From Tolypothrix carrinoi HA7290-LM1 (GTDB lineage Bacteria; Cyanobacteriota; Cyanobacteriia; Cyanobacteriales; Nostocaceae): a stretch of DNA of 40,599 nt. The notes below the pieces were generated by a model. The model saw only the letters and a list, made by a program, of their open reading frames with translations. It ran no database searches and was not told the DNA's origin. This document shows, one piece after another, positions 15,194-27,773 of this stretch. The stretch covers positions 1 to 40,599 of the forward strand of contig JAHHIK010000078.1 in NCBI GenBank assembly GCA_019358935.1, in the 5' to 3' direction. Position 1 is the stretch's first letter, and every line of letters starts with the position of its first letter. Both the position numbers and the translations under genes were made by a program.

Positions 15194-16408
15194 CTATCCA
15201 AGCAAAGAGTGGTACAGCGCGAGGGTTTGGTGGGCGACGGCAGCCCAGGTAAACCGTTCCTCTACGCACCGTCGTCCGTTGCGACCAAATGTTTCGCGGA
15301 GCATGGGATTGGTTGCGATGTAATTGAGTGCAGTAGCGAGATCATACGCAAACTGAGTAGGATGTGTGGGCTCAAGCGTGTGTGGTGTCAGCTCAAGATC
15401 AACCAACAGCCCTGTCTCACCATGAACGACGATTTCTGGTATACCACCGATCGCAGATGCTACGACGGCAGTTCCACAAGCCATCGCTTCAATGTTAACC
15501 AAGCCGAACGGCTCATAGATTGATGGGCAGCAAAAGGCTGCTGCGTGCGAATAAAATTGAATGAGTGCTGCTTGAGGCACGTCTTCGAGCCAGAATACGC
15601 CTGTACGGTGCTTCTGAATTGTCTCGATTCGTGTGCGCAGCTTGTGCCGTAACTCCTCAATGTCTGGGGCTCCTACGCAAAACACAACTTGCAGTGTCGG
15701 GTCAAGGTACTCAATCGCGTCGATTAGGTAGTCAATCCCTTTTTGCTGCGTGATGCGCCCGACAAAGAGTACATATGGACACATCGGGTCGATTCCATAC
15801 TGGAGTAATGCGTATATTGCAGGAGTTTTGCAATATTGCTCGATGTCGATGCCATTATAAATGACTTGAACCTTCTCAGCCGGAGTCGCAAACAATCGTA
15901 GGATATCTTGACGGGTTGCTTCCGATACGGCAATAACCATGTCCGCAGCTTCGATTGCTGTTTGCTCCATCCAACTACTCAGCTGATACCCTCCTGATCC
16001 GAGCTGCTCCTGTTTCCAAGGACGCAGTGGTTCTAGCGAGTGAGCCGTCAGCACAAGCGGAACCCCCCACAGCTTCTTTGCCAAAAAGCCGCCCATGCAG
16101 GTAGACCAATCATGACAATGGACGATATCAGCGTCAAGCGTATCTTTCGCCATCGCTAAGCTGCGTGCGAAGGCATCTAATGGATTAACAAGACGCGGAT
16201 CGGGGCTGTGCTTGATCTCATCCCACATCTGGTATCCTCGTGCTTGAAGGTTGCCTTCGTGACGGTCCCGATCGCCAAAGTAGTGTACTTTTACCGACAG
16301 TGCGCGGGCTAACTCACAGCTAAGATACTGGACATGAACGCCACTTCCGCCATAGACGTTTGGTGGATACTCTTTAGAGAAAATTGCGACTTTTTGAAGT
16401 TTTGGCAT
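15194..16408 (-). CDS. GT4 glycosyltransferase, GlgM (actinobacterial 'GlgA')-like
   Basis: EYPPNVYGGSGVHV, TAHSLEPLRPWKQEQLG, FVGRITQQKG, PSIYEPFGLVNIEAMACG. Confidence 0.88.
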   Translation of the reverse strand: MPKLQKVAIFSKEYPPNVYGGSGVHVQYLSCELARALSVKVHYFGDRDRHEGNLQARGYQMWDEIKHSPDPRLVNPLDAFARSLAMAKDTLDADIVHCHDWSTCMGGFLAKKLWGVPLVLTAHSLEPLRPWKQEQLGSGGYQLSSWMEQTAIEAADMVIAVSEATRQDILRLFATPAEKVQVIYNGIDIEQYCKTPAIYALLQYGIDPMCPYVLFVGRITQQKGIDYLIDAIEYLDPTLQVVFCVGAPDIEELRHKLRTRIETIQKHRTGVFWLEDVPQAALIQFYSHAAAFCCPSIYEPFGLVNIEAMACGTAVVASAIGGIPEIVVHGETGLLVDLELTPHTLEPTHPTQFAYDLATALNYIATNPMLRETFGRNGRRCVEERFTWAAVAHQTLALYHSLLG

Positions 16409-16561
16409 ATACGTACTTTATACTCTACGCTGAAACGCTTTGTTCAGCAACGCGAACAGTAAAAGCCAAGTAATATGGTCAACTACACGCATTCCTGGGT
16501 CATTTAACACCTGACGAATAGCAACAGCATCGATCTGGTCTAGTGCTGAAGCGCAGATAAA

Positions 16562-17326
16562 TCATTGGGATGATGCTGCTTTTCGACCGATCACCACCAT
16601 CCGAAGGGTATCCAGGGTCAGTGGACTGCCATTCAATCCACCGTAGTATGCTTGCACCTGAAAACCGGCTATTTCAAACATCCGCACTAGGTCTGTCAAA
16701 GTATAAATGTGCACTGTCTCATAGGACTCAGCACGGCGATCATCGGGAAAGATGACAGTTGTACGTACCTTATTACGACTCGTGTAAAGGTCAAAGTGGC
16801 GCTCATAAATGACTATTGATCCATCGTCGTTTCGAGTAACGACGTAGGGAAGATACTGGCGCATCAGAGCATCCCTATGGATGATGTCGATCAAGAAGCA
16901 ACCACCGGGCTTGAGCGCTTTATGCACTTGCTGAAAAACTTTCTGATTTTCATCCTCGTTCTCGAAATAGCCGAAAGCGGTGAACATATTGATCGCAGCA
17001 TCAAACGTGTTTTTGAAGGGAATATCCCGCATATCCTTATGAATCCACTGTACCTCTACATCGTGAGCTTTTGCATCTTCTTTAGCTCGGTGTAGGAACA
17101 CCTCGCTCAGATCCTGTCCGACGATTTGGTAGCCTCGTTGGGCGAGATTAATAGAATGGCGTCCGTAACCACAACAGAGATCGAGGATCTTGTCTCCCCG
17201 TGACAAACCGAGTAGGTTAATGATACCGTCAACCTCGCGAACTGTTCTCTCTGGCGATAAAGAAGATTCATAAATGTGCAAGTGATCTTCCTGACAAAGG
17301 GGTTGATACTGCGGAATATCGCTCAT
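16562..17326 (-). CDS. Class I SAM-dependent methyltransferase
   Basis: ILDLCCGYGRH, DMRDIPF, FDAAINMFTAFGYF, LKPGG; start moved to MSDIP because of a GAGGA RBS. Confidence 0.9.
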   Translation of the reverse strand: MSDIPQYQPLCQEDHLHIYESSLSPERTVREVDGIINLLGLSRGDKILDLCCGYGRHSINLAQRGYQIVGQDLSEVFLHRAKEDAKAHDVEVQWIHKDMRDIPFKNTFDAAINMFTAFGYFENEDENQKVFQQVHKALKPGGCFLIDIIHRDALMRQYLPYVVTRNDDGSIVIYERHFDLYTSRNKVRTTVIFPDDRRAESYETVHIYTLTDLVRMFEIAGFQVQAYYGGLNGSPLTLDTLRMVVIGRKAASSQ

Positions 17327-17517
17327 TTTTTCCTCAATTAAGCGTATCGTGATACAAATTGCGGCCGATTGCGGCAAGTATCTAGCGATTCCTTTGTTCG
17401 ACAAGCAAGCAGCGACGTGCATCAATGTTTGTTATCACTCAGATCCACGCAAGCTTTCCACCTAACTACCAGAACCGCACTGTGACAAAAGCCTGTCATA
17501 GCAATCAATGGCATTGC

Positions 17518-25517: not shown

Positions 25518-25527
25518 AATTTAAGTC

Positions 25528-26436
25528 CTACCAGTGGATAGTCTCTAGCAACTTCTCATGCAGCTGTTTTGTTGATGCCGCAATACATGACTGTTGATTG
25601 TTATCGCTGATCTCCATTAACAGCGTGTCGTTAAGCGACTTGCCGAAAGCGTCAGTGATAATAATTCCAGCCTTGTGTGCCAAAAAAACACTAGCAGCAA
25701 TATCGTACGGGAATAAGTGCAGAATGTGACCGTTGCCTGCTCTCTCGAAAACAGGACGCAGTTCTGGATGCTCTTTAAGTACACGGTTACCAATATCAAC
25801 GTAAGCATCAAGCTGTCCTGTGATAATTCGAGAGATAGAGTAGGAGGCACTATTAAACAAGAACACTCCTCCAGTGTTAGCTGATAGGTCAATAAGATGT
25901 CCATAAGCACCAATCATGACTGATGTTGGATGACCATTGAACTCAAACGACCAAAACATCTGTTTTAGGTCAGAGGTGTGACTCAGGTTTGGCAGTGCGT
26001 GCGGATATCCTCCATAAACTAAGCCATCATAGTAGTGATCACTATAGATATAGGCACCAGTCTTCAGCTCTTTCAACAATGCATACTCGATATCAGCAAT
26101 TCGTGCAGACTCCTTAAACTTAGCTACAGCAATTGAGATACAACACATTTCCAAACCAGCTGCTGCCGGTCGAGTTCCATCTATGGGATCAACAATCAGA
26201 AGATAGCTGGGATTGTCTCCGAACACCTGCAGACCTCTGTCTTCTGAATAGACTGCGATTGGGTCTCCTCTATCAACTACGAATTTCCAGACTGCATTTT
26301 CGGCAAGTTCATCAACATTGAACTGTGCGTCGCCACCAGGCGAGTACCCATTAAGCAAGCGATTCTTTAGGCTGCCCCGACTCCTTTTAATTTCGTCATA
26401 AACGTAGTCAGCCAGACTCAAGATATAGTCCTTCAT
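25528..26436 (-). CDS. yktc1: Inositol-monophosphatase-family phosphatase, Yktc1 homologue (iminosugar pathway)
   Basis: SED, VDPIDGT and PYDIAAS motifs; end-to-end resemblance to recalled Bacillus Yktc1 (SPGGDAQF, FNGHP, FNSASYSISRIITGQ); ATGA overlap with gabT1. Confidence 0.85.
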   Translation of the reverse strand: MKDYILSLADYVYDEIKRSRGSLKNRLLNGYSPGGDAQFNVDELAENAVWKFVVDRGDPIAVYSEDRGLQVFGDNPSYLLIVDPIDGTRPAAAGLEMCCISIAVAKFKESARIADIEYALLKELKTGAYIYSDHYYDGLVYGGYPHALPNLSHTSDLKQMFWSFEFNGHPTSVMIGAYGHLIDLSANTGGVFLFNSASYSISRIITGQLDAYVDIGNRVLKEHPELRPVFERAGNGHILHLFPYDIAASVFLAHKAGIIITDAFGKSLNDTLLMEISDNNQQSCIAASTKQLHEKLLETIHW

Positions 26437-27773
26437 CGCACCTTTCTCAAAACTTTTTCAAGTTGATCGCATAACTGCTCAGACTCTTCTAGTGTGATAA
26501 TCAGCGGTGGGCGAATCTTAAAAACATTCCCATAACCATATCTAGAAGTTCTGAGAATCAAGCCGTATTTCATGGCAGTTTTTGCAATGTAGTTAGTTAA
26601 ATCTGTATTTGGGTTGCCTTCCGAGTCAGAAATCTCAACCCCAATCATCAACCCAACACCACGAACATCGCTAATGAAAGTGTATTTCTCTTGCATTTTG
26701 CGGAGGCGTTCCATGATGTAGTTGCCGACAACTTCTACATTTTTGAGGAATTCGGGCTGACTGACAATTTCTAAGGTCTTGGCAGCAGCAGCAGCTGCCA
26801 AAACGTTCGACCCGAAGGTGAAGGAATGGTGATGCCCGTCAAGACCGCCTAGCCTCTCCTCTGTTAAAATGGCGGCGAACTGAAACCCTGTACCACCAAG
26901 ACCCTTTGCTGCGGTGATGATGTTCGGTTGTACACCGAAGTAATCGGCAGCAAACATTTTACCTGTTCGACCAATACCAGTCTGGATCTCATCAAAGATG
27001 AGAATAATGCCTTTCTCATCACACAGCTTCTTAAGCGCCTGAAAATATCCTGGAGGGGGGACAATATTGCCACCATTACCAGAGATGGGTTCGACGATCA
27101 TACAAGCAATATTTCCAGAACTTCCATATTCAATGAAGTCATGGATTCGTTCTACGCACAGAAGGTTACATGTCTCTGGTTTCTGTTTGTAGAAGCAGCG
27201 GTGACAATATGGATCAGGTACTTGAATACTTCCAGAAAATAGGTTGGGAAAAGGCTCTTTACGAAAAGCATTTCCCGACAAGCTTGTCATCATCATTGTT
27301 TGCCCTAAGTGACTCCGAAATAATGAGATGACATCTTTCTTCCCTGTAAAATGCTGAGCAATCTTGATTGCACCTTCATTTGCTACGGACCCGCTGGAAA
27401 CTTTAGGATGCACCTTTGTCAAGTTTTCCGGGGAAAGCTTTACTAGTTTTCTCACAACAGTGTTAACTGGGTCAGTTTGAAAAGATGACGTGACATGAAC
27501 TAACTTATCAGCTTGCTCTTTGACTGCTTGCAGAACCTCTGGATGCCCGTAGCCTAGAGACATATTGAATGTCGCGGATGCACAGTCAATGTAACGATTA
27601 CCCTCTGTGTCGTAGAGATATATACCTTTCCCGTACTCTATCAGAGTGTCGCTCACCTTGTGATAGATTAGGTCGTGGATACTTGTCTGTGACTTCATCA
27701 TTTTGACAAGACCCGCTTCGGAGTTCCTTCCAAATTCAGACTCTAGATTCAATGCCTCTTCAAAAGCTCGCAT
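26433..27773 (-). CDS. gabT1: Class III PLP aminotransferase, GabT1 homologue (iminosugar pathway)
   Basis: [18 protein letters not shown]; azasugar-type segment [12 protein letters not shown]...[28 protein letters not shown]. Confidence 0.9.

Follow-up and report, generated by a model that had tools for sequence, protein, structure and literature searches.

The stretch of DNA analysed here, referred to as the window, is the whole of contig JAHHIK010000078.1 (40,599 bases; C78 of the 184 contigs in a 7.96-Mb draft genome that is 99.65% complete) of the cyanobacterium Tolypothrix carrinoi HA7290-LM1. It carries a putative iminosugar (azasugar) gene cluster of ten open reading frames (ORFs), all on the minus strand and spanning positions 15194-27773, to which domains were assigned by Pfam and NCBIfam profile searches. 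The cluster begins with a class III pyridoxal phosphate-dependent aminotransferase of the GabT1 type (27773-26433; PF00202, E 2e-96) and a phosphatase of the inositol monophosphatase (IMPase) family, Yktc1 type (26436-25528; PF00459, with DPIDGT and YDIAA motifs), and continues beyond a spacer of 618 bases (24910-25527) with a MATE-family exporter (24909-23554; PF01554; TIGR00797, 200 bits against a cut-off of 147), a Zn-dependent medium-chain dehydrogenase (23410-22379; ADH_N and ADH_zinc_N), a calcineurin-type metallophosphoesterase of 614 residues with a purple-acid-phosphatase-like N domain (22257-20413; PF00149, PF16656), a nucleotidyltransferase of the NTP_transf_2 + DUF4037 family (20392-19493; a weak Pfam match to Pol-beta nucleotidyltransferases), a classical short-chain dehydrogenase/reductase (SDR; 19415-18702; PF00106, E 3e-59), a LacD-type class I aldolase (18567-17518; PRK12858, 386 bits against a cut-off of 184), an S-adenosylmethionine-dependent methyltransferase (17425-16562; Methyltransf_25, Methyltransf_11), and a glycosyltransferase of family GT4, GlgM subfamily (16408-15194; TIGR02149 glgA_Coryne/GlgM, 488 bits against a cut-off of 302).

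The end of the aminotransferase gene and the beginning of the phosphatase gene share 4 bases (ATGA), and the remaining intergenic gaps within the cluster are 20-153 bases, with the sole exception of the 618 bases between the phosphatase and MATE genes. A preliminary description, made from the letters of this DNA, had reported ten co-oriented genes with these domains and translational coupling of the first two at ATGA, and the ORF list and profile searches bear out both points. The long spacer contains a repeat of ~160 bases at ~25052-25209, with copies 85-86% identical on contigs C109 and C94 of the same assembly; contigs of the source run end at this repeat, and read depth is raised over it in public sequencing runs X1 and X2, so that it is possibly a miniature mobile element. 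Because this repeat-bearing spacer splits the phosphatase gene from the MATE gene, the cluster is probably organized as two transcription units. The G+C content of the cluster genes ranges from 0.44 to 0.52, compared with 0.43 for the whole window. An Rfam scan of the whole window gave no match, and a promoter and terminator scan of the window gave counts near those of shuffled sequence (19 versus 21.1 and 20 versus 13.6, respectively), which were not used.

Bacterial azasugar clusters are defined by an aminotransferase, a phosphatase and a dehydrogenase, and their aminotransferase has a diagnostic consensus, SGNXFRXXXFPNXXXXXXXLXVPXPYCXRC (Beal and Horenstein, PMC8382821). The window's aminotransferase carries this consensus as a 28-residue stretch in which every fixed residue is present except that L is replaced by I, and in which the spacer is 2 residues shorter; a loosened form of the motif is found in 16 of 25 cluster-clade aminotransferases and in 0 of 30 others. 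The best database matches are cyanobacterial (82-88% identical; the close ones include proteins named from Fortiea contorta), followed by proteins of many phyla at 60-77%, with those named from Bacillus atrophaeus and Bacillus spp. at 68-70%. A reference Bacillales locus (L103; MFS transporter, aminotransferase, IMPase, Zn-dehydrogenase), the aminotransferase of which is 93% identical to a protein named from B. atrophaeus, encodes an aminotransferase 69%, a phosphatase 66% and a Zn-dehydrogenase 33% identical to those of the window. The phosphatase is 79-82% identical to its cyanobacterial relatives, and 11 of 19 loci with an aminotransferase at least 52% identical to the window's (L006-L024) also hold an IMPase that is 53-64% identical.

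In a FastTree phylogeny of 55 aminotransferases, the window's protein groups with five Nostocaceae proteins, adjoining one Myxococcales protein, and this group lies inside a clade with cluster enzymes of the Bacillus group and Streptomyces, distant from housekeeping paralogues; the paralogues in the window's own genome are 27-34% identical to it. The preliminary description had quoted the motif, had found the first two ORFs to resemble GabT1 and Yktc1 closely, and had named grouping with housekeeping enzymes as an outcome that would count against it. The motif is there in the form just described, the aminotransferase does not group with housekeeping enzymes, and by their sequence similarity and phylogeny the two proteins are the counterparts of GabT1 and Yktc1. 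The aminotransferase is accordingly placed, as a prediction from homology, at the amination of a ketose 6-phosphate at C2; in Bacillus, GabT1 and Yktc1 convert fructose 6-phosphate to 2-amino-2-deoxy-mannitol (PMC8382821).

The Zn-dehydrogenase, which probably starts at the ATG at 23386, has the catalytic and structural Zn motifs, a GGGPMG motif, and a Glu after the second strand; because of this Glu, use of NAD+ is suggested. Its gene is parted from that of the phosphatase by the spacer and the MATE gene. The protein is 82-85% identical to those of five cyanobacterial relatives, 44% identical to that of one Myxococcales locus and 27-33% identical to the enzymes of canonical clusters, and in a tree with long branches and no outgroup, the window's sequence and four cyanobacterial sequences form a clade of their own, apart from nine canonical ones that group in a supported clade (99/99). 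The gabT1-yktc1-gutB1 core proposed for this DNA thus holds in that a Zn-dehydrogenase is present, but the enzyme is not an orthologue of GutB1, given its 33% identity and separate clade. The SDR has the motifs TGxxxGxG, NNAG and YxxxK and an Arg after the second strand, and is probably NADPH-dependent because of this Arg. It is 78-79% identical to its counterparts in 5 of 5 relatives, where it always adjoins the Zn-dehydrogenase and the aldolase; it matches generic SDRs only among solved structures, and is predicted to reduce either a cyclic imine or a keto group.

Solved LacD structures (3myp, 3mhf and others) match the aldolase along its entire length (E 4e-80), and it keeps the Schiff-base motif, reading DVLKAELPV where 3myp reads DVLKVEVPV. 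The lysine corresponds to position 205 of 3myp, which we take to be the Schiff-base Lys205 of LacD. Of 125 aligned rows, made up of the window's protein, 120 database clusters and four locus translations, 124 have this lysine and one reads DVLM. In the 13 rows of the cyanobacterial cluster type (the window, P0393-P0400 and the four locus translations, some rows being the same proteins), two loops read SA(T/S/A)AT and GLD without exception, the window having SATAT and GLD, versus SAGV and GRATW in all 112 others; a Gly and an Arg conserved in LacD are lost in this way. The loops with Ser249, Gly251 and Arg278 presumably form the C1-phosphate site of LacD. In YihT, a related aldolase, phosphate is bound by Ser226, Ser227 and Arg253, and the Schiff-base Lys193 lies 33-60 residues earlier (PMC8006165), a loop-to-lysine spacing comparable in YihT and LacD. 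We infer that the window's aldolase no longer binds a C1 phosphate. The LacD-like assignment made in the preliminary description stands as regards the family (PRK12858) and the Schiff-base lysine, but residues conserved in LacD (SAG, GRA) are changed. Close aldolase proteins are named from F. contorta, Brasilonema sp. UFV-L1 and a Nostocales metagenome-assembled genome. One related aldolase gene (L140, G434:C30:14242-15270) contains a single in-frame TAG, so that a sequencing error or a pseudogene is possible there.

The cluster is rare. At E 1e-120 or better, a sample of 401 genomes from the phylum contained the aminotransferase in two; within the family it occurs in 6 of 389, and none of 10 other genomes belonging to the window's genus has it. 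The LacD-type aldolase is found in exactly the same six of the 389. The Zn-dehydrogenase, SDR and aldolase genes are contiguous in 6 of 6 cluster genomes, their products being 70-85% identical, and by this conservation the three belong to the core of the cluster. The ratios of nonsynonymous to synonymous substitution rates (dN/dS), computed against three relatives for five core genes, range from 0.06 to 0.16 (aminotransferase, 0.08-0.10; phosphatase, 0.13; Zn-dehydrogenase, 0.06-0.07; SDR, 0.12-0.16; aldolase, 0.12-0.16). In the gene orders of the relatives, AT stands for aminotransferase, AT2 for a second aminotransferase, ZnDH for the cluster-type Zn-dehydrogenase, DH for a further dehydrogenase, NTase for nucleotidyltransferase, and HAD for a phosphatase of the haloacid dehalogenase family. 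The order is AT, IMPase, glucokinase, AT2, DH, HAD, DH, NTase, EamA, PhoD, ZnDH, SDR, aldolase in genome G677; AT, IMPase, glucokinase, NTase, EamA, PhoD, ZnDH, SDR, aldolase in G483; AT, a 36-residue IMPase remnant, glucokinase, AT2, DH, HAD, DH, NTase, EamA, ZnDH, SDR, aldolase, DUF1349 in G456; and AT, glucokinase, HAD, EamA, PhoD, ZnDH, SDR, aldolase, DUF1349 in Cylindrospermum sp. FACHB-282 (L006). In G434 the genes lie on two contigs, one with AT, IMPase, AT2, DH and a possible HAD (a 230-residue ORF), and the other with ZnDH, SDR, aldolase and PhoD. An IMPase or HAD phosphatase is thus present in every related cluster, PhoD in 4 of 5, EamA in 4 of 5, and the nucleotidyltransferase family in 3 of 5. 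Within the Cylindrospermum genus group, the core is found in 2 of 3 genomes, including the named FACHB-282 record.

Two further features of the relatives are recorded here. Three of the five related clusters (L093:9935-14198 in G677, L091:7519-11792 in G456 and L094:4750-7864 in G434) contain a second module, placed between glucokinase and nucleotidyltransferase, made up of another class III aminotransferase, which has 500 residues and 27-28% identity to the first, together with a HAD phosphatase and two further paralogues of the Zn-dehydrogenase; it resembles another aminotransferase/dehydrogenase/phosphatase set; the source genome of the window has no orthologue of this second aminotransferase. 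A DUF1349 (concanavalin-like) gene follows the aldolase in two Cylindrospermum-group loci (L006:19470-20051 and L091:17873-18421), and the window and the other relatives are without it.

The nucleotidyltransferase scores below the curated Pfam cut-offs (20.5 versus 21 bits and 21.4 versus 26.9 bits), and its atlas clusters carry NTP_transf_2 and DUF4037, with 946 library representatives at E 0.001 or better. Its AlphaFold model has a predicted local distance difference test (pLDDT) score of 93, and the best 13 PDB matches listed for the model are ANT(4'), LinB, ANT(6) and ANT(4')-IIb, with template modelling (TM) scores of 0.45-0.58 by query; the top 11 rows have TM scores of 0.52-0.58 by query and 0.54-0.67 by target. 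The conserved residues G31-S32 and D43-x-D45 make up a GS + DxD motif, and as modelled, the protein has the fold of antibiotic O-adenylyltransferases. Homologues 50-53% identical are encoded in 3 of 5 related clusters. We infer a role in masking or self-protection because the gene sits in a biosynthetic cluster.

The metallophosphoesterase has intact metal-site motifs (SDH, GD, GNHD and GHSH) and no sequence match to any solved structure. It and the MATE exporter occupy the slots that PhoD phosphatase and the EamA/DMT exporter fill in the relatives. By BLASTP the metallophosphoesterase has no similarity to the relatives' PhoD (E 0.48), so that the two are analogous by Pfam architecture only. 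The PhoD of G483 begins with a twin-arginine motif, RRTFLK. Of the relatives' glucokinase, EamA and PhoD genes no trace was found in the window, and the PhoD paralogues elsewhere in the source genome are only 35-36% identical to the PhoD of the relatives.

The methyltransferase probably starts at the ATG at 17326, and its nearest named solved relatives include the N-methyltransferases 7wzg, 5gwx and 3bxo, making it possibly an N-methyltransferase. The closest proteins to the glycosyltransferase are 60-65% identical, the named ones being glycogen synthases or alpha-maltose-1-phosphate synthases of Chloroflexota; it is the sole TIGR02149 match above cut-off in its own genome. The N-domain of GlgE (PF11896), which was detected in 2 of 14 named genomes used as a control (Corynebacterium and Deinococcus), has 0 matches in this 99.65% complete genome. 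Of the genes that the preliminary description regarded as extensions of the core, only the methyltransferase and the glycosyltransferase would add chemistry that the relatives lack; the SDR and aldolase (5/5 relatives) and the nucleotidyltransferase (3/5) are not tailoring genes, and the MATE and metallophosphoesterase genes are better understood as standing in for the relatives' EamA and PhoD.

Contigs of public sequencing runs were aligned to positions 13500-30500 of the window; run X1, from which the window itself may come, was not counted. In X2, a lichen metagenome from one study, 30 of 30 bins are covered, and the pieces listed are ~97-99% identical; in X3 and X4, biofilm metagenomes from one other study, the pieces are ~90-95% identical. 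The contigs of the two studies cover the glycosyltransferase (in X2, X3 and X4), methyltransferase, aldolase, SDR, nucleotidyltransferase, phosphoesterase, Zn-dehydrogenase, phosphatase and aminotransferase. Pieces from X3 and X4 bridge the junctions glycosyltransferase-methyltransferase, aldolase-SDR, nucleotidyltransferase-phosphoesterase, phosphoesterase-dehydrogenase and phosphatase-aminotransferase; on X4 contigs, the phosphoesterase still adjoins the nucleotidyltransferase and the Zn-dehydrogenase, and the methyltransferase adjoins the glycosyltransferase. No piece among the matches listed bridges the methyltransferase-aldolase junction, and X3/X4 cover at a likeness of at least 85% is slight or absent in the two bins that fall within the MATE gene. 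Because contigs of two other studies cover three of the window-specific genes (methyltransferase, glycosyltransferase and phosphoesterase), with several junctions bridged in one of these studies, the extended architecture is, as judged from these alignments, that of a lineage and not a single accident.

The surroundings of the cluster suggest a mobile element. It is bounded at low coordinates by an IS701-like transposase of the DDE_5 type (13996-14901, minus strand; PF13546, NF041680) and on the high-coordinate side by insertion sequence (IS) remnants and an IS630-type transposase (28307-30706; PF01710 and PF13358 for 29727-30706), the short ORFs at 28307-28889 and 29373-29636 resembling transposase fragments by eye. 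The contig also carries a relaxase domain, a NikA-like gene, a ParA-like fragment, an integrase and many transposases, and the N-terminus of the relaxase (query residues 2-196) is 41-56% identical to Nostocales plasmid relaxases. Insertion sequences seem to have cut short the backbone genes of the element: the relaxase ORF (34129-35952) matches, with its own N-terminus, only the last 69 of 132 Pfam profile positions, and the ParA-like ORF (9056-9727), which abuts an IS630 transposase, matches profile positions 56-169 only. A 511-residue ORF at 12454-13989 has IS4-type domains (N-terminal and DDE_Tnp_1) and a C-terminal IS630-type DDE_3 domain, and is probably one insertion sequence inside another, with a single reading frame running through both. 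At 1326-5679, five ORFs of 169-475 residues, all on the plus strand, have no Pfam family at E 0.01 or better, apart from a weak AAA_24 match. No replication gene was recognized on the contig and its ends do not overlap; a PLSDB megablast search with the whole cluster found no match, and the aminotransferase matched 10 plasmids in that database, from Bacillus (8) and Paenibacillus (2). Location of the cluster on a mobile element is likely, and on a plasmid plausible.

The cluster very probably makes an iminosugar, and its best explanation, to which we assign a probability of about 0.6, is an iminosugar glycosidase-inhibitor cluster that represents a cyanobacterial variant of the aminotransferase-phosphatase-dehydrogenase pathway. 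By homology, the aminotransferase would aminate a ketose 6-phosphate, which the IMPase would then dephosphorylate; the NAD-type Zn-dehydrogenase would oxidize the amino-hexitol, the amine would close on the new carbonyl, and the NADPH-type SDR would reduce the cyclic imine. Oxidation at the secondary C5 hydroxyl would give a five-membered 2,5-imino-hexitol such as 2,5-dideoxy-2,5-imino-D-mannitol (DMDP), an outcome to which three things point: another dehydrogenase stands in for the usual one, the cluster includes an SDR, and the core is shared by a named Cylindrospermum record; that the product is in fact a DMDP-type pyrrolidine falls slightly short of an even chance in our estimation. The aldolase probably handles a ketose without C1 phosphate, either making ketohexose 6-phosphate from an unphosphorylated donor or reshuffling C3 and C4 of the amino-ketose. 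The adenylyltransferase-like enzyme would probably add, and the metallophosphoesterase later remove, a nucleotidyl or phosphoryl mask, the latter role being filled in the relatives by a Tat (twin-arginine translocation)-exported PhoD, with a kinase also present; the exporter (MATE here, EamA in relatives) would send the compound out. Self-protection by masking is known for aminoglycosides, as in the case of streptomycin phosphate and its phosphatase. Finally, the methyltransferase and the GlgM-type glycosyltransferase could give a methylated and/or alpha-glucosylated derivative, and whether either decoration truly belongs to the pathway is doubtful enough that we hold it only tentatively.

DMDP has been isolated from Cylindrospermum (Juttner and Wessel 2003, as cited in PMC8402191), and the title of that paper states that it inhibits digestive glucosidases of grazers. 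The preliminary description had linked this DNA to cyanobacterial DMDP, and the link is strengthened by the presence of the core in the Cylindrospermum sp. FACHB-282 record, which makes the cluster a good candidate for the DMDP of Cylindrospermum. An Anabaena 'iminotetrasaccharide' is also on record by title (cited in PMC8402191 and PMC6627551). A highly speculative joint reading, which we consider improbable as a whole, is that Nostocaceae use these genes to make pyrrolidine iminosugars (DMDP and relatives) by a route not described before, in which ring size would be set by a non-GutB1 dehydrogenase together with an SDR imine reductase, a LacD aldolase without a C1-phosphate site would build or epimerize the amino-ketohexose, a cryptic cycle of nucleotidylation, export and unmasking would protect the producer, and recruited GlgM and N-methyltransferase enzymes would, in the window's lineage, yield an iminosugar both methylated and alpha-glucosylated, perhaps related to the Anabaena compound.

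Several points weigh against the pathway set out above, some of them by favouring an alternative. The link between Cylindrospermum and DMDP is circumstantial, and the role proposed for the lost Gly and Arg of the aldolase draws on LacD numbering and on the homologous site in YihT. The relatives' nucleotidyltransferases (50-53% identical) are no closer to the window's than are unrelated library members (up to 54%); the function seems to have been kept, and the gene may have been exchanged. The metallophosphoesterase has no obvious signal peptide, unlike the Tat-signal PhoD of the relatives. GutB1 itself looks like a polyol dehydrogenase, and sequence cannot tell C5 from C6 oxidation; the NCBIfam models for threonine, inosose and idonate dehydrogenases are hit by the window and L103 enzymes alike, and their family therefore gives no regiochemical signal. 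The same cluster family might then make a piperidine of the nojirimycin, mannojirimycin, 1-deoxynojirimycin (DNJ) or 1-deoxymannojirimycin (DMJ) type, the dehydrogenase oxidizing the primary C6 hydroxyl and the SDR being the reductase that is missing from the Bacillus cluster. DNJ needs a reductase too, the first two enzymes are 66-69% identical to the Bacillus-group pair, and B. atrophaeus is a listed DNJ producer (PMC8382821). We nevertheless regard a piperidine as unlikely: the dehydrogenase belongs to a distinct clade, 27-33% identical in most canonical loci; DMDP, a pyrrolidine, is the sole iminosugar reported for this cyanobacterial family in the literature searched; and nojirimycin is not reported from cyanobacteria according to PMC8402191.

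Points of the same adverse kind concern the genes peculiar to the window. The MATE, metallophosphoesterase, methyltransferase and GlgM-like glycosyltransferase genes are found in 0 of 5 other family genomes; the glycosyltransferase, at the edge of the cluster beside a transposase, is nearest to ordinary-looking GlgM of the Chloroflexota glycogen pathway; and homologues of the metallophosphoesterase (40-56% identical) stand alone in 34 of 34 metagenome loci, none of which links them to other cluster genes. With transposases on both flanks and G+C varying among genes from 0.44 to 0.52, the pathway might consist of six or seven conserved genes only, the methyltransferase and glycosyltransferase, and perhaps the MATE and phosphoesterase, being IS-borne cargo and the product undecorated. 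Against this, the genes point the same way and lie 20-153 bases apart, X3/X4 contigs (~90-95% identical) bridge three window-specific junctions and X2 covers every part at ~97-99%, no GlgE was found in the genome to use maltose 1-phosphate, and the phosphoesterase and MATE fill the slots of PhoD and EamA, for which reasons cargo seems to us an improbable account. Very unlikely, in our judgement, is an open-chain amino-polyol or amino-sugar phosphate made or degraded without cyclization, for instance as a compatible solute or envelope component: the dehydrogenase is not of the GutB1 type, sugar catabolism, too, typically involves an aldolase, a glucokinase (here in the relatives) and several phosphatases, and the steps after the phosphatase are predictions, but the aminotransferase lies inside the clade of azasugar three-gene clusters, an exporter is present in the window and in 4 of 5 related clusters, the rare and patchy distribution (6/389 genomes) is as expected of a specialized metabolite, and a carbonyl at position 5 or 6 beside a 2-amine is generally known to cyclize spontaneously. 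An aminocyclitol or nucleoside diphosphate-sugar pathway was ruled out, there being no sugar-phosphate cyclase, sugar nucleotidylyltransferase or dehydratase in the Pfam and NCBIfam scans.

By its gene content, the cluster is a new cyanobacterial variant of the azasugar pathway, with an entry pair already known from Bacillus. The text and one supplement of the azasugar-cluster survey (PMC8382821) do not mention cyanobacteria, and a search for the Bacillus genes in Synechococcus gave only housekeeping-level aminotransferase matches (PMC8402191). In the literature searched, with few subscription journals within reach, no gene cluster is described for cyanobacterial DMDP, and a dedicated imine reductase in a bacterial azasugar pathway is unreported. 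Iminosugars are drug scaffolds for diabetes and lysosomal storage disorders (PMC8382821), and they are also ecological weapons, as with DMDP against the digestive glucosidases of grazers. The cluster family supplies candidate genes and organisms (Cylindrospermum, Fortiea and Brasilonema records) for cyanobacterial DMDP, and it offers unusual catalysts: an aldolase whose phosphate site has been remodelled, an adenylyltransferase-like enzyme placed among biosynthetic genes, and GlgM without GlgE. The window's variant, which lichen and biofilm metagenomes also contain, may lead to a decorated product.

Individual enzymes of the cluster can be compared with characterized ones. The nucleotidyltransferase has a common fold and the GS/DxD motif with antibiotic O-nucleotidyltransferases (ANT(4') kanamycin nucleotidyltransferase, LinB and ANT(6)), which act on hydroxyls of amino-sugar-like small molecules, but it is only 10-17% identical to them and belongs to the uncharacterized NTP_transf_2 + DUF4037 family. 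The glycosyltransferase is like the GlgM alpha-maltose-1-phosphate synthase of the GlgE glycogen pathway in its TIGR02149 match and 60-65% identity, but differs in lying within an iminosugar cluster, in a genome where no GlgE was found. The aldolase is like the LacD tagatose-1,6-bisphosphate aldolase in its full-length alignment and DVLK(V/A)E lysine motif, but has SA(T/S/A) in place of SAG and GLD in place of GRA.

As a whole, the cluster most resembles two bacterial systems. With the gabT1-yktc1-gutB1 cluster of Bacillus velezensis/amyloliquefaciens, which directs nojirimycin/DNJ biosynthesis (PMC8382821), it shares the overlapping aminotransferase-phosphatase junction and the aminotransferase motif, and a Zn-dehydrogenase and an exporter are also nearby. 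It differs in its cyanobacterial host, in a Zn-dehydrogenase that is neither orthologous nor adjoining the phosphatase, and in 5-7 further conserved or recurrent genes: SDR, modified LacD aldolase, nucleotidyltransferase, large metallophosphatase, exporter and, in the relatives, kinase. The clusters of Chitinophaga pinensis, for 1,4-dideoxy-1,4-imino-D-arabinitol (DAB-1), and of Paenibacillus (aminotransferase, dehydrogenase and HAD phosphatase; PMC9092360 and PMC8382821) demonstrate that the same logic gives a pyrrolidine and that the phosphatase family can be swapped, and two cyanobacterial relatives likewise use a HAD phosphatase instead of an intact IMPase gene. Compared by description only, the five-membered ring of DAB-1 comes from a C5 substrate, xylulose 5-phosphate, whereas a five-membered ring here would need oxidation at C5 because the aminotransferase is closest to enzymes of the fructose-6-phosphate type. 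The final imine reduction of the DAB-1 pathway is ascribed to an 'unknown enzyme/mechanism' (PMC9092360), whereas the cluster in the window encodes an SDR.

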